Assembly: GCA_045631965.1 (NCBI GenBank)
Contig: JAZQVR010000008.1
Coordinates: 95,879-127,878 of the forward strand
DNA length: 32,000 nucleotides
Origin: Acutalibacteraceae bacterium
GTDB taxonomy: Bacteria > Bacillota > Clostridia > Oscillospirales > Acutalibacteraceae
Direction: 5' to 3'
The position numbers and the translations under genes are program-made. The notes below the pieces were generated by a model, which did not search any database, was not told the DNA's origin, and worked only from the letters and a program-made list of their open reading frames with translations. Shown one piece after another: positions 7,976-31,611 of the stretch. How positions within the stretch are numbered: position 1 is the first letter of the stretch; each line of letters starts with the position of its first letter.

Positions 7976-8052
7976 CGGGGTGTGGCGAAGTTTGGTATCG
8001 CGCTTGGTTCGGGACCAAGAGGCCATGGGTTCAAGTCCCGTCACTCCGACCA
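7976..8052 (+). tRNA. tRNA-Pro (anticodon CGG), CCA encoded
   Basis: Cloverleaf folded by hand. Acceptor CGGGGTG/CACTCCG, D stem GCGA/TCGC, anticodon stem CTTGG/CCAAG with loop ttCGGga, T arm ATGGG-TTCAAGT-CCCGT, then ACCA. Length 77 nt. Confidence 0.93.
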
Positions 8053-18270: not shown

Positions 18271-19182
18271 TTACAGTTTATTTCTGTAATTATACTTATT
18301 AAGCACTTGTTTCTTTCTCTTGGTTGTTACCTCAGTGTATATCTCCGTTGTCGCAACACTACTGTGACCAAGGATTTCTTGAACGGAGCGTAAGTCTGCA
18401 CCGTTTGCAAGAAGATTAGTAGCAAATGTATGCCGCAAGTAATGTGGTGTCGACTTCTCATTAATTCCACAGGCTCTTTTTGTTGAATTATAAATATATT
18501 CTATACCGTGTATGCTTAGCTGTTCACCAAAACGGTTTACAAATATCTTATCTGTGTTGGTTGGTCGGTTTTTACGGATTTTCAGCCACCGGGTAAGATT
18601 GTTCCAAGTGTCGTTACAGGATATATAGATAAGTCTCTGTTTTCTCCCCTTGCCGTGAATGAGAATAGTTCGTTCAGAAAAAATCACATCACTAAGTGCG
18701 ATGTTTGAAGCCTCGGCTATTCTTATGCCGGTACTAATGAGTACATCAATCAAAGCAAGGTTGCGATAATTCTTCCACAAGTCAAAAGCGGTTGTCTCAT
18801 TTTCGGCACAGACGGTAAGATAAGTGAGCAGTTTTGAGGTTTCTTTTACCGCTAAAGTCTTTGGGAGCCGTCGCTCTTTCTTATAGCGAAAGTGGTGATT
18901 TTGATAGTAGTTTACATCAGTATAACCTTGCTCATAAAGAAAACCGAAAAACATTTTCAGTGTAATTAACTTTCGGCAAATTGTGTTATCTTTGAGCTTT
19001 CGCTCTTTGGATAACATTTGCACATATTTCAGGATTACCGTTTCATCAAGCTCATCGCTTCGCAGAAACGCCTGAAAATCTTTTAAATCCGAACGGTAAG
19101 CTATTATCGTTTTATCGGATAAATTTTTTGTAGATTGGATGACTTGTATAAATTCATCACTCGCTGTTTTTATACTTTTCAT
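18271..19182 (-). CDS. Tyrosine site-specific recombinase, XerC/XerD-like (303 aa)
   Basis: N-terminal SAM-like core-binding domain. Catalytic signature TGIRIAEA (Arg), HYLRHTFAT (His-x-x-Arg), LGHSSVATTEIYTEV (His, Tyr). GAGGAG lies before the ATG. Confidence 0.9.
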   Translation of the reverse strand: MKSIKTASDEFIQVIQSTKNLSDKTIIAYRSDLKDFQAFLRSDELDETVILKYVQMLSKERKLKDNTICRKLITLKMFFGFLYEQGYTDVNYYQNHHFRYKKERRLPKTLAVKETSKLLTYLTVCAENETTAFDLWKNYRNLALIDVLISTGIRIAEASNIALSDVIFSERTILIHGKGRKQRLIYISCNDTWNNLTRWLKIRKNRPTNTDKIFVNRFGEQLSIHGIEYIYNSTKRACGINEKSTPHYLRHTFATNLLANGADLRSVQEILGHSSVATTEIYTEVTTKRKKQVLNKYNYRNKL

Positions 19183-21777: not shown

Positions 21778-22647
21778 TTATTTCTTTACAACAGGAACCC
21801 ATATTTCGCTACGGTAATCGGGGCTTCCCATATTACCCTCGGTATAAGCCTCAATATCCATTTCATAAGTAGGCTCATAGCCTGATGTCGGGAAGAATTC
21901 CGAAACAATTTTGTGCCACATATCCTGCATAGCTTTCGGCATTGCACCTTTGCATTCAAACACTGCCCATGTTCTTGCAGGAATCGTGTTTCTTCTGAAG
22001 CCTTCGGGAGTCTCAGTTTTTTCATCACATTTTGCTGCGATTGAATAATCAAACGTCTTTGCGTTTTCGGGAAGATTTCCGTAGCACACACCAAATATGA
22101 AGGTTTTGTCTGTCGTTAATTCTGTTAATCTCTTAACAGTTCCGTCTTTGTGAGAACGTGTCCAGAAATCAGGAATACTCTTGGCATTTTCTGAATTTTC
22201 AACAGTATGTGCTTCAACCTTTTCAATAATATCAAAAGCCTCTTTTTCTACAATTTTGTAGTCCATTATATTGCCTCCGCTTAATGCAATTTTCACAGTA
22301 AGGCGAGAAAAAGATTTGAGTTTTGAACCATCTTTTTTTGCTTCAGATGGTGTTATGCCGTGAAATCTTGTAAAAGCTCTTGTGAAACTTTCAGGACTTT
22401 CATATCCGTATTTAAATGCAATATCAATTACTTTTGAATCAGAAGCACACAGTTCATTGCCGGCAAGTGTTAGCCGTCTGTTTCTGATATAGTCTCCCAA
22501 AGTAATCCCACACAAAATACTGAAAATTCTTTGAAAATAGAATTCCGAACACGCTGCTTCTTTTGCAACAAGCTCCATATCTATTTCATCAGTTAGATGA
22601 TTTTCGATATAATTAATTGCATTCTGTATGCCCGTAATCCAATCCAT
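21778..22647 (-). CDS. AraC-family regulator with a GyrI-like effector-binding domain (289 aa)
   Basis: AGAGGTGA lies before the ATG at 22647 (MDWITGIQNAINYIENHL). AraC HTH GYESPESFTRAFTRFHGITPSE. C-terminal GyrI-like half ending SPDYRSEIWVPV. Confidence 0.85.
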   Translation of the reverse strand: MDWITGIQNAINYIENHLTDEIDMELVAKEAACSEFYFQRIFSILCGITLGDYIRNRRLTLAGNELCASDSKVIDIAFKYGYESPESFTRAFTRFHGITPSEAKKDGSKLKSFSRLTVKIALSGGNIMDYKIVEKEAFDIIEKVEAHTVENSENAKSIPDFWTRSHKDGTVKRLTELTTDKTFIFGVCYGNLPENAKTFDYSIAAKCDEKTETPEGFRRNTIPARTWAVFECKGAMPKAMQDMWHKIVSEFFPTSGYEPTYEMDIEAYTEGNMGSPDYRSEIWVPVVKK

Positions 22648-22784
22648 ATGCTCACCTCTTTGTGTGATTACATTATAAAGCAAAAGTAATGATAGTTCCT
22701 GACTTTTTATGCTCAGTATTGTATGGATATATTTTAACACACTTTATCTGTTGTTTCAATCAATGTGATATTCATTTTTTGTTA

Positions 22785-22813
22785 TTGAAAAGGCATACTA
22801 TTTATGCTATAAT
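22785..22813 (+). promoter_or_regulatory. Near-consensus promoter for the leader and APH-like gene
   Basis: TTGAAA-17 nt-TATAAT. Confidence 0.7.
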
Positions 22814-22861
22814 AAATTCAAATAAATCTGCAAAAGCAGATTCCGAAAGGAGAACAATTGT

Positions 22862-22894
22862 ATGAAAGTTTTTTATGAGGTAATCGTATCTTAA
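22862..22894 (+). CDS. Candidate 10-codon leader peptide MKVFYEVIVS
   Basis: AAGGAG lies 9 nt upstream of the ATG. It sits inside a structured 5' region of about 300 nt that ends in a terminator. Confidence 0.4.
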   Translation: MKVFYEVIVS

Positions 22895-23030
22895 ACTGAA
22901 TATGTGGTGCAAACGATTATCGAGGCATAGGCCTCTATGTTGTTGTGCCGTTTTAAAGTAACCTTTCGTGAATACTATAACTTTCGGTTGTAGCACACTT
23001 TAGGGTGTGTTATTTTTATGCATAAAATCA

Positions 23031-23077
23031 GCCGTAGGAAGTACCCACTAATGAGGGTTGCTTTCTACGGCATTTTT
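23031..23077 (+). terminator. Intrinsic terminator (attenuator) 48 nt upstream of the APH-like start
   Basis: GCCGTAGgAAG...CTTtCTACGGC (11 positions, 1 mismatch; inner ACCC/GGGT stem) followed by attttt. Confidence 0.7.
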
Positions 23078-23124
23078 GCGCTTGTTTTCAGATATTGTTA
23101 ACATAAATATTTGGAGGAATAAAA

Positions 23125-24087
23125 GTGAATAAAAATATAATAGAAAATAATTTTAATTTGATAGTATGTGATATACAACTTCTTGATAAACATTTTGGTA
23201 CTGAGCTTTATTTAATTAACACAGATGTCGGTAAATACATAGTTAAAATTCTGCCTTTGTATATGGAAAATGTAAAAAATGAAGGTGAAGTTACCGAATA
23301 TCTTTATAATAACGGACTTAAAGTTGCAAGATTTATGAAAAGCAACGATGACGCTTATGTGGTAAAAACACCTGAATTTCAGTTTACCGTTCAACAGTTT
23401 ATTGAAGGAGAATCACTACCGGTGAATACTGCACCTGATTGGTTTATCTGCAAATCTGCCGAGTTTCTTGGTCAAACAGTATTGTTGTTGAAAGATTATG
23501 ATGGGTTATCGTTACGATTTGGCAAAGACTTCTTTTCAACTAAAACAGTTCGCAGGAAAATATGGCAGTATAAAAAAGAGCTTGTCAGAGCGAAAAAAGC
23601 AAAAGATGTGAATATTATACCTATTTGGGAAGAACAAATCCGGCATCTCAAAAGAATCTCAAAATTCCGTATTGATACTAAAAAACTGACTTATGCCAAT
23701 TCGCACGGTGATTATCACATAGGTCAAGCTATCATACATAACAATGATTTCACGGTTGTTGATTGGAGTTCAGCTTGTCGATTGCCGATTTGTTTGGATG
23801 TTATAACATCTTATGTATTCTCAAGTTCCACCTGTGCTGCAGGTGAAATAGATGCAAACGGACTGAAAAAGTACATCAGTCAATTTACAGAAAAGTTTCC
23901 GTTAACGGAATATGATATAAAAACAATGCCTTATGTTCTGTATTATTGGCACTGTATGTGTAATTATCGTCCTGATGAACTCTGTGATATTCCTGACAGT
24001 TATAAAGCTATTGCAAAACTCATAAATAACTTTTTGAACTGGCTTTATGATAATGTTGAAGAATTGACGGAAGAACTAATTAAATAA
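23125..24087 (+). CDS. APH-family (aminoglycoside/macrolide phosphotransferase-like) small-molecule kinase (320 aa)
   Basis: GTG start with GGAGG 7 nt upstream. Brenner-type catalytic loop SHGDYHIGQAI and VVDWSSA. N-lobe lysine context YIVKILP. Confidence 0.7.
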   Translation: MNKNIIENNFNLIVCDIQLLDKHFGTELYLINTDVGKYIVKILPLYMENVKNEGEVTEYLYNNGLKVARFMKSNDDAYVVKTPEFQFTVQQFIEGESLPVNTAPDWFICKSAEFLGQTVLLLKDYDGLSLRFGKDFFSTKTVRRKIWQYKKELVRAKKAKDVNIIPIWEEQIRHLKRISKFRIDTKKLTYANSHGDYHIGQAIIHNNDFTVVDWSSACRLPICLDVITSYVFSSSTCAAGEIDANGLKKYISQFTEKFPLTEYDIKTMPYVLYYWHCMCNYRPDELCDIPDSYKAIAKLINNFLNWLYDNVEELTEELIK

Positions 24088-24100
24088 GTAAATTCACTCC

Positions 24101-24135
24101 GAGGTGTCGACTAAAAACCGACACCTCAATTATTT
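24101..24135 (+). terminator. Terminator after the APH-like gene
   Basis: GAGGTGTCG-actaaaaac-CGACACCTC (9-bp perfect stem) followed by aattattt. Confidence 0.7.
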
Positions 24136-24155
24136 AGAAAAGTTTTGAAAAACTA

Positions 24156-24184
24156 TTGACATTGGTAAACATTTGTTCTATAAT
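24156..24184 (+). promoter_or_regulatory. Perfect consensus sigma-70 promoter
   Basis: TTGACA-17 nt-TATAAT. Confidence 0.8.
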
Positions 24185-24190
24185 CATAAG

Positions 24191-24472
24191 CACAATTAAA
24201 TAAACGACTTTAAATCGTGCAAGCAGAGCAGTACCTTTACAGGCTGAAAATCTTCTAAGCGCCGTATGAAGTCGAATGTACATATCTTTCAAAAGAGCAA
24301 CACACAGCAAGAACCTACATATCAGTGTTGCAGAGACGAAAGAACCCACTTTCTTAATCGCGTAAGCGGGGCAGGACTCTGTTTTCAGAGCTGAAAAACC
24401 ACCAAGCACCGTAACGAAAGTCGATTGGATGTGGGATAACTATGTCCATTCGAGTTCGTACGGTGCTTTTTT
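24191..24472 (+). ncRNA. Candidate structured non-coding RNA of about 280 nt (class unknown)
   Basis: It lies between the consensus promoter and a 9-bp-stem terminator (AGCACCGTA...TACGGTGCT + TTTTT). Internal hairpins include GCAACAC/GTGTTGC, CGC-GTAA-GCG (GNRA) and GAAAG/CTTTC. Two half-modules are related to each other. The only plus-strand ORF is 42 codons with no SD. Confidence 0.5.
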
Positions 24473-24598
24473 GTGTTTTAAACGGATTTTTCAAGAGCTT
24501 AATGAAATAATTACCCTGCCGACAAAATTAACCCCTTTACAGAGGCGCAAATCGTCAAAAATCAACCTGAATCACTGCAAATAAAGGAGATTGATATT

Positions 24599-25486
24599 AT
24601 GGAAAACTTAAAAATTGACAAGGAATTTGAAATGCTCATACCGGCACTTACAATTGATGAGTATGAACAGCTGAAAAGCAACATCTTATCTGAAGGTGAA
24701 ATATTCAACCCCATTTTTACTTGGAATGGATATATCATCGACGGACATCACCGCTATCATATTCTGTCTGAACATCCGGCGCTTAAATACAAGATTGTTG
24801 AAAAGGAGTTTTCATCAAGATTTGAAGTGTTGTCGTGGATTTGCAATAATCAGCTCGGCAGAAGAAACCTTACACCCGAAAACAAGAAGTATCTTATAGG
24901 CAAAAGATATGAAGCGGAGAAAATGTCTCATGGTGGTGCAAGACGTGGTGCTGAATTTTCAACTGACCAAAATAGTCTGTTGAAAAACGGATTGACAACA
25001 AGACAAAAGATTGCAAAAGAAACAAAAACCAGCGAGGGATATGTTGCCCGAGCCGAGCGGTTTGCAAAAGGTGTAGACGCAGCAGAAGAAGCTGTTCCGG
25101 GCATTAAAGAAGAAATACTTTCAGGAAAAATAAAGAAGCCTGAAGGTGTAATAGCAGATATTGCAAAAGCTCCTGAGGAAGAAAGAAAATCTCTTACTGC
25201 AAATTTGAGATTGGTACAAAAATATGAAAAGCCTACACCTGCCATGATTCAAACTATAAGATCAATATGTGCAGAAATGAAAGAGTTGGATACAGCCGGC
25301 GATGTTGAAAGCTTTTTAGAAACATTAGAACTGGATGTGGAAAATCATATCGTATCATATAAATTCACTTTTTTTCATAATCCGAAACTTTTGAGTGCTG
25401 AGTATTTTCAAAGAACAATGGCGGTTATGCAAAAAATGATAGACTATATCGCAAGCATCAAGCCCGAGGAGTGTGATGAAACCTGA
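24599..25486 (+). CDS. ParB N-terminal-domain (ParB/sulfiredoxin-like) protein (295 aa)
   Basis: AAAGGAGA lies before the ATG. Carries LIPALTIDEYEQLKSNILSEG...NGYIIDGHHRYHI. Confidence 0.7.
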   Translation: MENLKIDKEFEMLIPALTIDEYEQLKSNILSEGEIFNPIFTWNGYIIDGHHRYHILSEHPALKYKIVEKEFSSRFEVLSWICNNQLGRRNLTPENKKYLIGKRYEAEKMSHGGARRGAEFSTDQNSLLKNGLTTRQKIAKETKTSEGYVARAERFAKGVDAAEEAVPGIKEEILSGKIKKPEGVIADIAKAPEEERKSLTANLRLVQKYEKPTPAMIQTIRSICAEMKELDTAGDVESFLETLELDVENHIVSYKFTFFHNPKLLSAEYFQRTMAVMQKMIDYIASIKPEECDET

Positions 25487-25533: not shown

Positions 25534-25842
25534 ATGCCGAAGGTGCTGTTTACAGACGAATATAAGGATTTATCTGCAGAGGCGAAGCTGCTTTATGGAT
25601 TGATGCTCGACAGAATGCAGTTATCCGCAATAAACGGCTGGTGTGATAAAAATGGTGAGGTCTTTATTTTCTATACTATTGCCGAAACAAGTGAAAAACT
25701 CGGTTGTGGTCATGACAAAGCAACAAGGCTGCAGCGTGAGCTTGAAAAACACAATTTTCTCCGCCGTAAATATCAAGGCAAGGGCAGACCTGCGAAGCTC
25801 TATGTTTTACCTATTCCGAAAACACGCATCAGGTCACCGTAA
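25534..25842 (+). pseudogene. RepA_N-type replication initiator, N-terminal fragment only
   Basis: MPKVLFTDEYKDLSAEAKLLYGLMLDRMQLS...FIFYTIAETSEKLGCGHDKATRLQRELEKHNFL matches the RepA_N pattern. The conserved FFK-PK motif starts upstream of the ATG with no canonical start codon. The ORF stops at 102 aa, whereas from memory full-length members are about three times longer. Family-like residues (NKTE.SKTE) continue in another frame. Confidence 0.6.
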
Positions 25843-26407
25843 AAGTCGCAAGTAATAAGACTGAGTAGAGTAAGACTGAGATATATACCAACCGAGAAGA
25901 AGAAAAATATTCTTTAATTAAGTTAGTAATAACTTTAAGTATATATGGTGTATTGGCTGAATGCGAAAAACTGATGAATACGCATCATTTCTTCTTCGGC
26001 TCGTAAAATACCGAATAGAAATTGATTGAATGATATCGGCATTATTATTGAGATTTCCATTTGAAAAAAGCTAATTTTCAACGGTTTGAACCGAGGAAAG
26101 TTAGCTAAAAACGGCACTTTTGAAAAAACAAATTTTTTCATAGGAATAAAAATCGAAATTTGGCAAATCAGACGATAGAAATTGGCAAAACGAACAGTAC
26201 CCCGTCAGCAAAATTTCCATTAAAAATCGGTGCATTCTGCCCATAGTACTAAGAGCGGAATGCACTCGAAAATGGCTCTGTTGAAAAATATAAATTTTCA
26301 ACTGAATTGAATTTTTATTATTTTTTCACTAATTTCCATTATGGGGCGGTTTTGACAAAAAGAAACTGCCCTCACAAATGTGAGAGCAAGTATAGTTTAG
26401 TTTTTAA

Positions 26408-26860
26408 TCATAATATTTTTGTCTTAAGAACTAAATTGGATGCTTCTTTGTATCCAAGTTTTCCATAGAAATGATTATGCAAATCATCATTTACCGACTG
26501 TAACTGAATGAGCATTGCACCTTCTTTTTTTACACATTCTTCTAACTGTTTCATAAATACTGTTCCGTAACCTTTGTTTTGCAACTGTGAGGCAACAACA
26601 ATTTCAACCAAGTCATACGCAAACCAATCATCATATTGCTCAAAATAGCCAATAGCAAATGCAACGATATCATTTTTGCTTTCCCAAATTAAACAATATG
26701 AATCCTCACGGCTCCAAACCTGATGAATACGTTTATATGTAGTTTCAGTTGTCCATTCAGCATCTTCATGATTGTTATAGTATTCGATATAAAGCGAAGC
26801 AACACTATCAATATCTTTCTCAGCCATTTTTCTGGGTGTGGTTTTCAATTTTCCAAACAT
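26408..26860 (-). CDS. GNAT N-acetyltransferase (150 aa)
   Basis: VVASQLQNKGYGTVFMKQLEE (Q/RxxGxG/A acetyl-CoA motif) and HFYGKLGYKE. Confidence 0.8.
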   Translation of the reverse strand: MFGKLKTTPRKMAEKDIDSVASLYIEYYNNHEDAEWTTETTYKRIHQVWSREDSYCLIWESKNDIVAFAIGYFEQYDDWFAYDLVEIVVASQLQNKGYGTVFMKQLEECVKKEGAMLIQLQSVNDDLHNHFYGKLGYKEASNLVLKTKIL

Positions 26861-26869
26861 AAATAAGCC

Positions 26870-27235
26870 TTACTGTTCATTTTTATAAGCATACCCGAAA
26901 TCTATCGGAGGTAAAGTAACAGAAATATATATGAATTCGGTATCACCATCATTTAACAAACCGTGAATATCATTATCTGCAAATCTGACAACATCACCTG
27001 ATTTAAATTCTAATTCTTTATCATCTGCAAGAAGTAATTTGCCTGTTCCTTGAATAGCATACCAAATCTGCTCTGAAGTATCGTGTTTGTGTCTTGGTTG
27101 ATTTGCTCCGATTTTAATATGAACTTCTGTTATTGTGACTCTTTCGCTCTTTGAATTTTCAGGATTAATAAGCTGTTTTGAAACAACACCGGGATTTGAT
27201 AGTTCTTTTATGTTTTCTCTTTTTATAAACTCCAT
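26870..27235 (-). CDS. Cupin-domain protein (about 121 aa)
   Basis: PRHKHDTSEQIWYAIQGTG...GDVVRFADNDIHGLLN (cupin motifs 1 and 2). The ATG at 27235 is 1 nt after the upstream stop. The track alternative is the GTG at 27247. Confidence 0.75.
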   Translation of the reverse strand: MEFIKRENIKELSNPGVVSKQLINPENSKSERVTITEVHIKIGANQPRHKHDTSEQIWYAIQGTGKLLLADDKELEFKSGDVVRFADNDIHGLLNDGDTEFIYISVTLPPIDFGYAYKNEQ

Positions 27236-27236
27236 A

Positions 27237-27698
27237 TTAAAACTCACATTCCATTATATCGTTTTCTGATTTGAAACCATTTCTTGAATACCAATTAACA
27301 GAATTATCACTCGGCCATACAAAGATTAATTCACAGCCCTTTTCTTTCAGATAATTCTTGATGTATGAAAGTAATTCTGTACCGTAACCTTTGTTTCTAT
27401 ATTCTTTCATTGTATGAACATTGGTAAGGTAAGCAATATATGCCCCACTTGCTTTAGGCTTAGGCACTTTATCAATAATTGCAACATACATTGCAGAAAT
27501 TACAATTCCGTCTTGCTCCAAAACAAAAATTGTATATGTAGAATCATTTTTCAGAAATGTGATGTAATCATCTATGAAACTCTGCTTATCTGCACCAACA
27601 ATATTTGTTTCACCATAGGTTATATCATCTTCTGCAGAATGTTCCCATTTCATTTCTGCTAATTGTAAAAAATCTTTTTCTTTAGCTAATCTAATCAA
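27237..27698 (-). CDS. GNAT N-acetyltransferase (153 aa)
   Basis: TTG start with AAGGGTGA 6 nt upstream. Carries YRNKGYGTELLSYIKNYLKEKG and WYSRNGFK. Confidence 0.8.
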   Translation of the reverse strand: MIRLAKEKDFLQLAEMKWEHSAEDDITYGETNIVGADKQSFIDDYITFLKNDSTYTIFVLEQDGIVISAMYVAIIDKVPKPKASGAYIAYLTNVHTMKEYRNKGYGTELLSYIKNYLKEKGCELIFVWPSDNSVNWYSRNGFKSENDIMECEF

Positions 27699-27717
27699 AG
27701 TGATTCACCCTTAATAA

Positions 27718-28173
27718 TTATATATTTTTTATAAATGTGTAGCCGATTCTCTCAACTCCGTCTGCTGTTGTGCATTTTCCGATTTCCGAAACAGCATATC
27801 CGAATGATTGATAAAGATTTATTGCTGCTATATTATCTTCGGTTGTGTGAATTCCAAGTTGATTAACTGTATTACTTTTTGCAAGATTTTCAATAAAAGA
27901 TAAAATGCATTTTCCAAAACCTTTATGTTGGAATTCGGATTTAACCTGAAGCATACCTAACCAAAGAATATTATCTATAATTTCAATTCTGAACCAAGCA
28001 ACAGGCTCAGTCGTACGAACAATATAATAAATTGAGTTTTTATCTGAGAGAAGTTTCTCCCATCCATTAAAAGTTCTTTGCGCTCCGTGCAGCTTATTAA
28101 TATTCTGATTATATGTTTCATCTATAAAAGGGATGTCTGCTTTAGATGCAATATTGAAAACTATATTATTCAC
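27718..28173 (-). CDS. GNAT N-acetyltransferase (151 aa)
   Basis: FQHKGFGKCILSFIENLAK and NLYQSFGYAV. Confidence 0.8.
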   Translation of the reverse strand: MNNIVFNIASKADIPFIDETYNQNINKLHGAQRTFNGWEKLLSDKNSIYYIVRTTEPVAWFRIEIIDNILWLGMLQVKSEFQHKGFGKCILSFIENLAKSNTVNQLGIHTTEDNIAAINLYQSFGYAVSEIGKCTTADGVERIGYTFIKNI

Positions 28174-28378
28174 AATCCATCATCCCCTCAACAGTAGTTA
28201 TTTTATTATACCACACACTCACCAAACAAATCAACCTGAATACATATCCTCGAATAAACACAAGGATTTTTATCACAAAAAATTTTAATTAAAGGAAGTG
28301 AAAAAATGCTTTAGCAAAATGTAAAAACAACTTTTCAAAACTCAAAAATTAAACTCTTAAGAAAGGAAAAACACATTT

Positions 28379-29233
28379 ATGTCAAATGAAAAAATTGAAT
28401 ATTTGAATCTTGATTTGCTTCATCCGTTTGAGAACAATCCGTTTCAGAGCGTTGATGAAAGTGAATACGATGAGCTTCGTGATAGCGTTAAAGAGTTTGG
28501 AATTATCACTCCGCTTATTGTTAATAAGTCGGGTAACGGTTATGAAATCATTTCCGGACACAGACGATGGCAGATTGCAAAGGAATTAAATCTTAATGTT
28601 GTTCCTGTTTATGTCAGAGAATTTTCAAAAGAAGAAGCGGTAATTAATTTTGTTGACTGTAATCTCAGCCGAGAAAAAATCTTACCGAGTGAAAAGGCAC
28701 GTGCGTATAAAATGAAACACGATGCAATTAAAAAACAAGGCACAAGAACTGATTTAACTTCGTCACAAGTTGGGACGAAGTTCCGCAGCGATGAAAAGCT
28801 CGCAGAAACAATGCCCGATTCCCGAATGCAGATTCAGAGATATATCCGTCTTAATAATTTACAACCTGCTCTTCTTGATATGGTGGATGAAAAAAGAATT
28901 TCTTTTATACCTGCAGTTGAACTTTCATATTTAACAGAAGAGGAACAGCGCAACTTAATTGAAACTATTGAAAGTGAAGACTGCACTCCGTCACTTTCAC
29001 AAGCACAGCGTATGCATAAGTTAAGTGATGAGAAAAAACTCACTATGGATGCTATCTTTGAAATTATGCAGGAACAAAAAGCTAACCAAAAGGAATATGT
29101 AAAAATCCCGGTTGAAACTTTTAAGAAGTATTTCAAGAAAGATATGCCGCCGAAAAAGATGGAAGAAATAACTGAAAAGGCTCTTGCACGGTATGCAATG
29201 GTGCTTCAAAAGCAACGTCAGTGGGAGCGATAA
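28379..29233 (+). CDS. ParB/Spo0J-family protein of a mobile element (284 aa)
   Basis: LDLLHPFENNPFQ...GIITPLIV...YEIISGHRRWQIAKEL (ParB box) followed by HTH-like and helical regions. Confidence 0.8.
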   Translation: MSNEKIEYLNLDLLHPFENNPFQSVDESEYDELRDSVKEFGIITPLIVNKSGNGYEIISGHRRWQIAKELNLNVVPVYVREFSKEEAVINFVDCNLSREKILPSEKARAYKMKHDAIKKQGTRTDLTSSQVGTKFRSDEKLAETMPDSRMQIQRYIRLNNLQPALLDMVDEKRISFIPAVELSYLTEEEQRNLIETIESEDCTPSLSQAQRMHKLSDEKKLTMDAIFEIMQEQKANQKEYVKIPVETFKKYFKKDMPPKKMEEITEKALARYAMVLQKQRQWER

Positions 29234-29261
29234 AAACCGTGGTATCGTCTTTGCTAGCATT

Positions 29262-29281
29262 GGATTTGTTGCAACAAATCC
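29262..29281. repeat. Perfect 20-bp palindrome upstream of mobC (candidate oriT inverted repeat or operator)
   Basis: GGATTTGTTGCAACAAATCC is its own reverse complement. It lies 21-30 nt upstream of the MobC start. Confidence 0.5.
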
Positions 29282-29302
29282 GCTCAGAAGCAGAAGAAAG
29301 GA

Positions 29303-29632
29303 GTGAAACACTTGCCGAGAAAAAGACAACACCGATATGCTTTTTATCTCGATGATGAAGAAAATGAAATGCTTTTAAGTCAAACAAAAGAATATAATGT
29401 CAGCGTTTCAAAGCTCATAAGATTGTTGATTTTGTACCAATGCATAAAATTTCCGCCTAAAGAAATCCGTTCTGTTGTTCCGGAACTTCGCCGTATAGGT
29501 AACAATCTTAACCAGATTGCAAGAGCTTTAAACTCAAAATCTTTTGTAACCGATAAAGAAATCAGAAATGCAATTACAGAATTGCGTAATTGTGAAAAGC
29601 AATTGCTTGAAAATTTTGATACAGGGAGGTGA
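29303..29632 (+). CDS. mobC: MobC-family relaxosome accessory protein (about 106-109 aa)
   Basis: ELRRIGNNLNQIARALN, the MobC signature. The start is the GTG at 29303 or, with better SD spacing (AAAGGAG + 8 nt), the in-frame TTG at 29312. Confidence 0.8.
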   Translation: MKHLPRKRQHRYAFYLDDEENEMLLSQTKEYNVSVSKLIRLLILYQCIKFPPKEIRSVVPELRRIGNNLNQIARALNSKSFVTDKEIRNAITELRNCEKQLLENFDTGR

Positions 29633-29638
29633 AAATTT

Positions 29639-30154
29639 ATAGCAATAACAAAAATTAAAAAGTTAAAAACGGGACTTTCAAAGCTGATTGATTATGCAAT
29701 GAATCCTTCAAAAACTACTGTCGATAAAATTTTTAATGACGGTATGAAGAACGAAGAAGTAGTTTTTGTCAAAGGTATAAACTGCACTCCCGAATTTGTA
29801 AAAGCACAGATGCAGGAAACAAAAGATATGTTTAATAAGAACACAGGTAATGTCGGTTATCATATCATTCAATCATTTGATGATAACGAAGGTACGAATG
29901 AACAGTTTTTTGAAATCGGTTGCAGACTTGCTGAAGAATTATTCGGTGATAAATTTGAAGTCATTGTTGCACTTCATAAAAATACAGACAACCTTCATTG
30001 CCATATTGTAGTGAACAGCGTTTCATTTGTTGACGGTAAAAAGTTTAATGATAACAAATCTTTTCTGAATAAAATGCGGAATGTATCAGACAGGATTTGC
30101 AGAGAACAAGGTTTATCGGTTATTGAAAATCCGAAACCGTCAAAGCATCAATGA
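29639..30154 (+). pseudogene. MobA/VirD2-family relaxase, N-terminal about 170 aa only, with ATA at the position of the usual initiator Met
   Basis: GGGAGG lies 9 nt before ATA-GCA-ATA-ACA-AAA (IAITKIKKLK). From memory, family members start MAITKI. The HxDxxHxH motif is present as HKNTDNLHCHIVVNSV. The ORF ends at 30154, whereas from memory relaxases of this family are several hundred aa longer. The first canonical ATG (29699) lies 20 codons inside the conserved region. Confidence 0.65.
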
Positions 30155-30244
30155 GTAGTTCAAGCAACAGAAAAAGAAACAGCATTATACCAAATTGCTC
30201 CACCTAAGGAAGAAGATGTATACTATGACAATTCGAACATTCAA

Positions 30245-30922
30245 GTGCTTGCATCTGGTTTTAACGTAACAGAAATAATCAGCGAATCTTTTAAGATTAA
30301 AGCACCTTTTGAAGATTGGTTTTATATTCCATTTAATTTTAGGCATAAAGATAGAACTAATATGCTAGAAAAAGAACTAACCCGTTTGTCCAAAAATGAA
30401 TGTGTGGACTTGTATGATTTACAAGATATATGGAAAAGCGGTAGCGATTATATGAGAAGAAGAATACAGGAGGCTTACACCAGAGTTCCCGGATCTTTCA
30501 ACACAAATTCGATGGTTCTTTTTTCAGGAACAAACGAAACACACACACTCCAACATATGGTATTCCCTCATATTTCTGATCCGTGGCACTTTTTCACTTA
30601 TAACACAAAAAATTCCGGATGTTTATACACTGGAGATTATGATGCATCAGGGAAAAAGAAGTTCAATGAGCTTTATGCGGAATATAAAACATATTGGGAA
30701 TATATAGGATGTTTACAGATTCCTCATCATGGTTCAAGATATAATTACAATAGTGCTTTTTCTACACTTGATGCATACCACATAATTTCAGCAAGCAAAA
30801 AGAATAGACACCAGCATCCACACTCATATGTCATCAAAGATTTGTTATTAAACAATTCATATCCATATATTGTTTCCGAAGATGTTGGTAGTGCCGTTTA
30901 TACTGTGGTAGCTTTGAGGTGA
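30245..30922 (+). CDS. C-terminal portion of an MBL-fold (ComEC/Rec2-like beta-lactamase-fold) protein, probably 5'-truncated (225 aa)
   Basis: GCLYTGDYD and LQIPHHGSRYNYNS...ISASKKNRHQHPH match the distal metal-binding motifs of MBL-fold hydrolases. No HxHxDH motif and no SD at the GTG start. It is in the same frame as the relaxase fragment, separated by one TGA and 30 open codons. Confidence 0.5.
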   Translation: MLASGFNVTEIISESFKIKAPFEDWFYIPFNFRHKDRTNMLEKELTRLSKNECVDLYDLQDIWKSGSDYMRRRIQEAYTRVPGSFNTNSMVLFSGTNETHTLQHMVFPHISDPWHFFTYNTKNSGCLYTGDYDASGKKKFNELYAEYKTYWEYIGCLQIPHHGSRYNYNSAFSTLDAYHIISASKKNRHQHPHSYVIKDLLLNNSYPYIVSEDVGSAVYTVVALR

Positions 30923-30951
30923 TTTAATTTTAAAAACAGGAGGTTTTATAT

Positions 30952-31611
30952 ATGAAGGATTATAGAGATAAAGAATTAAAATACTTAATAATAATTCTTG
31001 TCTTACTCTTTGTATTTTTGTGTACACCAATTAAAGAGGTAAACATTACCGATCTAGAGTTTCATAAAACATTAACAACTATTTTTAGCAGTATAGTTGT
31101 ATCAAGTGTCTTATCGTTAGCAACATTTATATGCGACTGTTTGTTGAGTACTAATCTAAAAAACAAACTGGTGGGGCTGTTCTTTATCCCTAAAGCCGGA
31201 GAAACAATCTTTACTCGCCTCAATAAATGTTCTGTCAAAGACGATAGATTTTTAAATTCTGAAGCTAAAACAAAATATAAAGGAATAATATCCAATATAC
31301 CTCAGAATAAAAACGATCGTTACGAGTACGAAAACTCTAATTGGTATAAAATATATAGGAAATATCAAGATAAAGGACAAGTATTGCAAAGCCAAAAGGA
31401 TTATTTAACCTGCAGAGATTTGTTTATAGAAACAATTGTATTTCTTGTATTATATTTTTTGTCATTGATTTTTTACGGTGAATTCGTTACTTTTTCTTTC
31501 AAATTTTTACTTGTTATAATATTAACAGCTGTTGTAACAAACCTTTCAACGCATGTAAAAATGAATCGTTTTGTTAACACGGTAATTGCACTTGATGTTG
31601 CTGAAAAATAA
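30952..31611 (+). CDS. Four-TM membrane protein, unknown function (219 aa)
   Basis: AGGAGG lies 9 nt upstream of the ATG. Four hydrophobic helices (about residues 11-27, 41-64, 150-170 and 174-195) flank a charged loop of about 85 aa. Confidence 0.65.
   Translation: MKDYRDKELKYLIIILVLLFVFLCTPIKEVNITDLEFHKTLTTIFSSIVVSSVLSLATFICDCLLSTNLKNKLVGLFFIPKAGETIFTRLNKCSVKDDRFLNSEAKTKYKGIISNIPQNKNDRYEYENSNWYKIYRKYQDKGQVLQSQKDYLTCRDLFIETIVFLVLYFLSLIFYGEFVTFSFKFLLVIILTAVVTNLSTHVKMNRFVNTVIALDVAEK

Follow-up and report, generated by a model that had tools for sequence, protein, structure and literature searches.

Integrative conjugative and mobilisable elements spread resistance and fitness genes in the gut microbiota, and the decision that activates them in Clostridia is poorly understood. 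A 32,000-nt stretch of DNA from an Acutalibacteraceae bacterium (contig JAZQVR010000008.1, positions 95,879 to 127,878; the whole stretch is hereafter called the window) raises the question of what a mobile element encodes between window positions 24156 and 24472, where a consensus promoter and a strong terminator enclose an interval that a preliminary description had taken for a structured RNA with two related segments. The answer proposed here, with a chance judged a little below even, is that the interval is a self-contained unit encoding a tandem leader RNA, which serves as a transcription-termination switch of integrative elements in gut Clostridia.

The unit from promoter to terminator

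The unit opens on the plus strand with a promoter of the sigma-70/SigA type (24156–24184), whose −35 hexamer TTGACA (24156–24161) and −10 hexamer TATAAT (24179–24184) match the consensus at 12 of 12 positions and are separated by a 17-nt spacer, within the 16–18 nt typical of this class. It is the sole 12/12 match between 23000 and 26000, in agreement with the preliminary description; the promoter is predicted to be active, with a transcription start near 24191. Both hexamers are unchanged in the related loci L002–L005 and L088, and the spacer varies. A hairpin GAGGTGTCGAC-taaaaa-CCGACACCTC on the plus strand (24099–24125), located past the APH-like gene (stop at 24087), is likely a terminator or an insulator ahead of the unit; L002 and L005 have the same hairpin ahead of the unit, and L088 has a similar one. 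Comparison of upstream flanks further revealed a 5' leader motif, ACAATTAAATAA (24193–24204, plus strand), which corresponds to the conserved (A)ACTGAATA ahead of the related copies that carry a single module.

The unit closes with a long-stem intrinsic terminator, T1 (24404–24472, plus strand; inverted repeat I1), in which a 5' strand (24404–24431) and a 3' strand (24441–24468) form an interrupted stem of 27 bp with a folding energy of −37.7 kcal/mol, adjoined by the U-run TTTTTT at 24467–24472. The terminator and its U-run had been recognised earlier, with a stem of 9 bp that has to be corrected to about 27 bp; a simple terminator scan overlooked T1 because of the bulges in the stem. The same combination of a G+C-rich hairpin and an adjoining U-run is present in 40 distinct related units. 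Between promoter and terminator, the RNA 24190–24475 has a minimum free energy of −87 kcal/mol (z = −5.29), and none of 200 shuffled sequences was equally stable. This stability, together with the conservation from the −35 hexamer to the U-run and the covarying helices described below, bears out the view of the interval as a structured RNA of about 280 nt, and all four hairpins singled out in the preliminary description were found again by sequence and folding. The 126 nt between the terminator and the ATG at 24599 (24473–24598, plus strand; given earlier as about 125 nt) form the leader of a ParB-like gene and contain a Shine-Dalgarno (SD) sequence, AAAGGAG, at 24585–24591.

Two open reading frames (ORFs) do exist in the interval, 24266–24394 on the plus strand (42 codons) and 24134–24409 on the minus strand (91 aa), and the interval might accordingly code for a small protein in one of them. 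This reading has a negligible probability, because neither frame is conserved among relatives: a 2-nt deletion in L004 and L088 shifts the plus-strand frame past residue 12, and the minus-strand ORF is altered in L003 and, in L004 and L088, shortened to 53–66 residues. Moreover, an SD sequence is missing, the minus-strand ORF has no Pfam match, and the substitutions track helices instead of codons. Both small-ORF readings were rejected on account of the broken frames, and the earlier verdict that the interval holds no credible ORF stands.

The comparison with Rfam 15 (4227 models) that the preliminary description had proposed was performed at the gathering thresholds and then at E ≤ 10. At the gathering thresholds, the sole match in the whole window was a tRNA gene at 7976–8049 (plus strand, 62.5 bits). 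At E ≤ 10, the region 24050–24650 returned three chance matches of 13–19 bits, all over the promoter and the upstream hairpin, and a single-module relative (L037:6250–6650) likewise gave chance matches only. The impression that the unit is unlike known riboswitch families is thus supported by the Rfam result, and no description of this RNA motif was found in the literature. The RNA family is absent from Rfam and is a candidate for an orphan riboswitch class or for a new antitermination pair resembling N/nut.

Two homologous modules in one transcript

The two related segments, approximately 24203–24284 and 24345–24432, share 61 identities over 90 aligned columns, and their alignment score of 24 compares with −10.6 ± 3.9 in 1000 shuffles. 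The homology noticed in the preliminary description is therefore real, with about 80 nt per module instead of about 55. A covariance model built from 38 modules matched the window exactly twice on the plus strand, at about 88 bits each: module M1 (24205–24274, 87.7 bits, also delimited by covariation and folding) and module M2 (24346–24423, 88 bits), which lie 147 nt apart and are 68% alike.

In M1, the outer helix P1 (24205–24212/24267–24274) is followed by the junction strand AAUC, a tiny helix P2 of the form G-U-[GCAA]-G-C (24217–24224), helix P2' (24225–24228/24252–24255), helix P3 with a UA bulge (24229–24246), an A-rich bulge (24247–24251) and the invariant 3' core UAAGCGCCGUA (24256–24266). 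M2 repeats this order with P1 at 24346–24353/24416–24423 (a single C-C mismatch), P2 of the form G-C-[GUAA]-G-C (24360–24367, within the CGC-GUAA-GCG hairpin 24359–24368), P2' at 24368–24371/24399–24402, P3 at 24372–24393 with the hairpin CUCUG-UUUU-CAGAG (24377–24390), an A bulge (24394–24398) and the 3' core CAAGCACCGUA (24403–24413); in P2', only the M2 lineage shows a double change from A-U to G-C. Folding places a further hairpin between the modules (24285–24343, plus strand), with an outer stem UCUUUC/GAAAGA and an inner stem GCAACAC/GUGUUGC (24297–24303/24325–24331) that survives a 2-nt deletion in L004, L006 and L088. The GAAAG at 24338–24342 can alternatively pair with CUUUC at 24349–24353, the 5' strand of M2 P1.

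A wider RNA family with a covarying fold

To the earlier proposal to look for homologs, gut metagenomes and metagenome-assembled genomes (MAGs) answered with about 70 relatives whose helices covary. A pattern representing the part common to M1 and M2 matched 85 metagenome stretches, mostly from the human gut, which contain these roughly 70 true relatives and about 40 distinct sequences; about 16 of the 85 are chance matches, and the covariance model rejected those tested. A pattern scan of IMG/VR yielded 0 matches, so the family is not evidently phage-borne, and BLASTN of the unit and of a single-module leader against plasmid and phage collections gave no match. Nearly all relatives consist of one module fused directly to a long-stem terminator. 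The single module with its terminator is the ancestral form and the tandem form a rare derivative, whose origin, given the predominance of single modules, lies in a duplication that took in both the module and the terminator 5' strand.

Owing to register shifts in the raw MAFFT alignment, RNAalifold detected no more than the terminator base and the pairs closing P3, so the structure was set by hand and verified by pair counts. In this structure 80.7% of the cells are paired, compared with 30–44% when the partners are slid by 1–3 columns, and 77 cells show double changes versus 32 ± 4.4 in column shuffles, a count that 0 of 500 shuffles reached. Every module folds as a three-way junction of about 75–80 nt comprising a variable P1, a tiny GNRA-capped P2 and a variable P3 with a purine bulge. 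The pairs of P1 interchange among C-G, A-U, U-A and U-G; P3 keeps its shape with different sequences (CCC/GGG, CUCUG/CAGAG, CCAA/UUGG, CCGGUC/GAUCGG); and the P2 loop is always GNRA (GCAA, GUAA or GCGA), with a 29-nt hairpin inserted into it in Ruminococcus albus, as expected of an exposed loop. The two junction strands, AAUCG-N-GNRA-GC-R-GAG and CCAAGC-R-CCGUA, hardly vary. The first of them lay outside the search pattern, and relatives found through a protein (see below) keep both. Invariant G-U pairs show that the fold is specific to the plus-strand transcript.

In assemblies of the gut metagenome runs X3, X6 and X12, the contig depth over the conserved module segments corresponding to window 24208–24285 was 2–12x that of the flanks, and contigs broke within P3. 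A single sample therefore contains several members of the family that differ in P3 (e.g. CGGUCAUUGACCG and CGGUCGCUGACCG).

Competition between module and terminator

The terminator takes its 5' strand from nucleotides that, in the folded module, make up the 3' core and the 3' side of P1, so that the two folds are mutually exclusive. All 40 distinct units end in a hairpin of 25–35 bp (median −39 kcal/mol), and in 36 of them the P1 3' strand lies within a hairpin of −26 to −44 kcal/mol. The basal pair of the terminator covaries (A-U 15, G-C 12, G-U 3), and the base of the stem is formed by the invariant CCAAGC-R-CCGUA strand. Terminator function needs no fixed sequence. The fixed strand, being unneeded for termination, thus points to specific recognition in the module-folded state, and the two exclusive, well-supported structures define what is, as far as the sequences tell, a regulated attenuator.

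The tandem copy in the window follows the same design with one terminator for two modules. The 3' strand of T1 (24441–24468) is complementary to the 3' part of M1 (24257–24284) at 24 of 28 positions, with a pairing energy of −38.0 kcal/mol, and pairs with M2 at −32.3 kcal/mol; the better pairing with M1 follows from the origin of the tandem by duplication of the module and the terminator 5' strand. The tandem version is a natural case in which one terminator strand is contested by two sensor modules.

In relatives such as L021, L033, L064 and L109, yet another segment competes for this module strand, as the third to do so. There, 10–40 nt past the U-run, a conserved GCUUCGUACUGCGUUAG is complementary at about 14 of 16 positions to AAGCGCCGUACGAAGC of the module, and the two covary (GUA-C-GAAG with UUC-G-UAC versus GUA-U-GAAG with UUC-A-UAC).

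Conservation and setting of the tandem unit

A search with the ParB-like gene led to six MAG loci (Clostridia, Acutalibacteraceae and Oscillospiraceae, from human and deer gut), and all six carry the tandem unit. Their identity to the window is 94–99% over the unit, 84–90% over the ParB-like gene and 73–89% over its leader. The conserved stretch opens exactly at the −35 hexamer and closes at the U-run, and the spacer, the flanks and the region upstream of the −35 hexamer diverge. A non-coding unit that is better conserved than the adjoining gene indicates selection on the RNA. More distant ParB-like genes (at most 61% identity, and also a 75% relative in L007/L008) do not have the RNA directly upstream.

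These data also bear on the idea that the unit is a decaying leader remnant without present function, or acts at the DNA level through hairpins as a single-strand origin, an oriT or a set of protein-binding repeats. The surrounding element is indeed degraded, with inserted cargo and with truncated RepA_N (102 aa) and relaxase (151 aa) genes. Against this stand the superior conservation of the unit over the adjoining coding sequence, the compensatory changes that keep RNA helices (the G-U pairs would be A-C on the other strand), the invariance of the promoter hexamers and the U-run, and the lack of any match in the plasmid and phage collections searched, which together make such a remnant or DNA-level role highly improbable.

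A more serious contender is that the unit makes an autonomous, abundant trans RNA of about 280 nt, serving for example as a two-site decoy that titrates the effector of related integrative elements (the zinc-ribbon protein described below), or pairing with their leaders and thereby blocking or sensing activation of these elements, with the ParB-like gene a mere incidental neighbour. The perfect consensus promoter and the very strong terminator suit such an RNA, as do two binding modules per transcript in the manner of a sponge and the lack of an effector gene in cis in the window. Conservation is confined to the promoter-terminator stretch, and at least five different sequences adjoin the U-run across loci and metagenomes. 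In L001, L002, L003, L004 and L006, a repeat-rich spacer of about 430–500 nt, missing from the window and L005, separates the terminator from the ParB-like gene. L088, an eighth tandem copy, has the promoter and both modules intact and only a convergent gene downstream. Conversely, in seven of the eight tandem copies the same ParB-like/RepA_N operon lies downstream in the same orientation, with the reservation that the seven represent one element lineage; the role of the ancestral family is clearly in cis; no complementarity to targets outside the family was found; and the RNA is known from sequence alone. A trans role is considered possible with a rather low probability. Of the two functions named in the preliminary description, a tandem cis-regulatory leader and a trans-acting regulator, both therefore stay in play, the family context favouring the former and L088 keeping the latter alive.

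Within the spacer, motifs including AATATATGGTGA and ACATAGGTGA occur more than once (e.g. L001:140–530 and L002:2410–2905, and likewise in L003, L004 and L006).

Gene context and a zinc-ribbon protein

The cis role is most apparent from about 60 single-module loci, which share a common order of genes: a LexA-like S24 repressor, one or two small genes, an ImmA-like M78 peptidase, a 93-aa zinc-ribbon gene and then the RNA. The RNA is followed by a gene of about 200 aa resembling sigma70 region 4, and next by an HTH_17 excisionase-like gene and a tyrosine integrase, or by PemK, ParB-like and DUF6551 genes and serine recombinases. The switch therefore lies between a repressor/protease module of the SOS type and the genes for excision, replication and transfer, a testable control point.

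The zinc-ribbon family (e.g. L037:6586–6867, minus strand; proteins P0121–P0218) comprises proteins of about 93 aa with an N-terminal helix, an invariant CPICG-x17-KCRKCKF and a tail rich in K, R and H, and its gene always follows the ImmA-like peptidase gene and overlaps the end of it. The association with the RNA held in an independent test: four zinc-ribbon clusters of 47–53% identity were selected irrespective of the RNA, and 10 of 10 loci carry it right after the gene at 41–86 bits. Two of three further relatives (34–52% identity) carry it as well, namely plasmid pRUMAL02 of the cultured strain R. albus 7 (39% zinc-ribbon identity) and a fecal contig (52%); the third, a Vescimonas locus (34%), has the long-stem terminator only. 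Searches of the zinc-ribbon protein against Pfam, NCBIfam and PHROGs gave sub-threshold matches only, leaving this potential partner family without Pfam annotation, and no description of the family was found in the literature. A profile search of the PDB indicated a weak similarity to ribosomal L37Ae (E = 0.004), and an AlphaFold2 (AF2) model with a predicted local distance difference test (pLDDT) score of 68 had no Foldseek match at E < 0.2. Considering its linkage to the RNA, which resembles that of known protein-RNA pairs (lambda N/nut, Mu Com/mom and conAn1/conAn2), the zinc-ribbon protein is most likely the effector, as judged from this analysis.

The same switch could instead respond to a small molecule or an ion, the module being an orphan riboswitch aptamer and the window copy a tandem aptamer on a single platform, turned ON as the ligand rises. 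The module is indeed a conserved, covarying structure whose P1 overlaps the expression platform, the classic design of an ON switch, and the aptamer-sized three-way junction with invariant junction nucleotides and variable outer helices is equally in keeping with a riboswitch. Furthermore, the tandem copy has no zinc-ribbon gene in cis, and the glycine riboswitch sets a precedent for tandem aptamers on one platform. In contrast, the RNA occurs only in the regulatory regions of mobile elements and never beside metabolic or transport genes; the genes downstream are sigma-like, Xis/Int, PemK, ParB-like and RepA_N. The ancestral form always follows the same small-protein gene, even where the protein has diverged to 39–53% identity, the pattern of a protein-RNA partnership, and there is no match in Rfam. 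A ligand-sensing riboswitch is thus unlikely, though it deserves consideration.

Downstream of the terminator in the single-module loci (e.g. L021:454 on the plus strand, L039:6794, L112:3010 and L116:2994), a hairpin AGUCCUUUCC...GGGAAAGGACU buries a Shine-Dalgarno sequence. It is followed by a conserved micro-ORF of 12–15 codons, MF..W(L)C..A(K/R/E)YP-stop, of which 17 distinct peptides all end in YP-stop. From its sequence and its position just ahead of the sigma-like gene, the micro-ORF looks like a leader peptide, possibly a ribosome-stalling one.

Proposed mechanism of the switch

For the tandem leader favoured here, the terminator would win by default, and polymerase starting from the consensus promoter would release an RNA of about 280 nt at 24467–24472. 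An effector holding the module core and P1 would block the base of the terminator, and read-through would then reach the ParB-like and RepA_N genes, or in the ancestral elements the sigma-like regulator and the genes for excision and recombination. The effector is envisaged as the small zinc-ribbon protein with its arginine-rich tail, which is encoded directly upstream of every single-module copy. With this gene missing in the window, the protein would come in trans from a co-resident element. Since M1 and M2 are both possible partners of the single T1 3' strand, termination would be prevented only with the two modules of the tandem copy occupied together, which would make the response steeper and AND-like.

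Several observations weigh against this scheme. The terminator fold is dominant, at −83 kcal/mol versus −67 kcal/mol with both P1 helices enforced, and P1 of M2 is weak (−7.4 kcal/mol), so antitermination would need strong help. The invariant core shows no covariation, and P2 with P2' and a long 'zipper' stem both fit it; the zipper pairing is no better than the alternative, the pair N25-R73 forming in 20 of 38 sequences versus 30 of 38 for N25-G30. No zinc-ribbon homologue was found in the 32-kb window, and the modest zinc-ribbon model comes with no significant structural or family match indicating RNA binding. In L088, with its convergent downstream gene, the unit cannot be a leader, and operators, iterons or a separate promoter of the ParB-like gene may be located in the 430–500-nt spacer. 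In runs labelled as RNA, the sequence appears only as assembled contigs that extend past the terminator and are uninformative on transcript ends.

A bolder version of the scheme, likewise unlikely but with larger consequences, is that the module represents the RNA half of an unrecognised protein-RNA antitermination pair, and that the copy in the window eavesdrops on a helper element or is an immunity decoy. If so, binding of the zinc-ribbon protein would open the way to the genes for excision, replication and transfer in a group of integrative elements very common among gut Clostridia of humans and animals, and a small mobilisable element would switch on its ParB-like and RepA_N genes only upon induction of the helper. 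In the alternative form, the RNA decoy would soak up the signal and confer immunity against related elements.

Comparison with known systems

An architectural parallel is the tandem glycine riboswitch (RF00504), likewise made of two homologous modules on one terminator platform. Its tandem homologous aptamers share one platform, and correspondingly the window contains two modules of 88 bits with one terminator complementary to both. The likeness is restricted to architecture: the glycine riboswitch has another fold and other conserved nucleotides, its model gave no match to 24050–24650 even at E ≤ 10, and the family described here accompanies regulators of mobile elements instead of ligand metabolism.

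Among phages, the antitermination or activation pairs of lambda N and nut boxB and of Mu Com and mom mRNA offer the parallel of a small basic or zinc-ribbon protein, which here too would recognise a small hairpin in nascent RNA. boxB adopts a GNRA-like fold; Com has its effect on translation, and N works processively via Nus factors. In its CxxC-x18-CxxC spacing and arginine-rich tail the zinc-ribbon protein is reminiscent of Com and N; no sequence or structural homology to either was detected. Unlike in these systems, the site of binding would double as the terminator 5' strand.

The closest systems described so far come from Gram-positive conjugative elements, in which an RNA likewise controls read-through at operon heads. 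Among them, conAn of the pLS20-type conjugative plasmids (PMC8191782) likewise consists of a small-protein gene followed by a structured intergenic RNA at the head of a Gram-positive operon, and leads to terminator read-through. In that account, conAn2 is a poorly conserved sequence of 260–600 nt that acts processively on downstream terminators, and ConAn1 has about 172 aa. By this description it is set apart from an 80-nt module whose invariant core shares the nucleotides of its own terminator and whose putative partner is a 93-aa zinc ribbon. The zipper-type attenuator cATT of pLS20 (PMC13401043) is similarly a leader attenuator of a conjugative element, with a long imperfect stem-loop, an upstream flank complementary to the terminator and alternating antiterminator and terminator conformations. 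According to the abstract, cATT is defined by its architecture, and no effector is mentioned there. The difference from cATT as summarised there is that two junction strands are near-invariant across very divergent elements, which indicates specific recognition. canT of Tn916 (PMC11658703) is another RNA of a Firmicute element that governs read-through of insulating terminators near a regulatory/excision end. It requires 341–452 nt, acts processively and lacks a defined conserved fold (PMC11658703), and this description separates it from the module. As described, the three systems differ from the family in size and processivity and have no conserved junction core joined to a terminator of their own.

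A type III toxin-antitoxin system of the ToxIN kind, with short antitoxin RNA repeats arrayed head to tail ahead of a terminator and an endoribonuclease toxin gene, was also considered and rejected: the window has two copies and no such array, and the downstream ParB-like gene lacks a toxin domain.

The host element and neighbouring genes

The first gene that read-through would reach is the ParB-like gene (24599–25486, plus strand), whose 295-aa product contains an IIDGHHRY motif; it has no match in Pfam or NCBIfam and matches the ParB-like families of PHROGs at about 1e-7. It is followed by the truncated RepA_N gene (25534–25842, plus strand), an oppositely oriented block of three GNAT genes and one cupin gene (26408–28173), a canonical ParB gene (28379–29233), a MobC/NikA-like gene (29303–29632) and an ORF for the nuclease domain of the relaxase (29699–30154). 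The element (25534–31611) is a degraded mobilisable element, and its characterisation as a decayed mobile element is confirmed by the truncation of RepA_N and of the relaxase.

Directly upstream of the unit, genes for an AraC/GyrI-like regulator and an APH-family phosphotransferase (21778–24087) are probably cargo, and a tyrosine recombinase gene (18271–19182, minus strand) lies 5 kb upstream. Over its first 207 residues, the ParB-like protein is 61% identical to the product of a distinct 208-aa gene located ahead of the ParB-like gene in L009.

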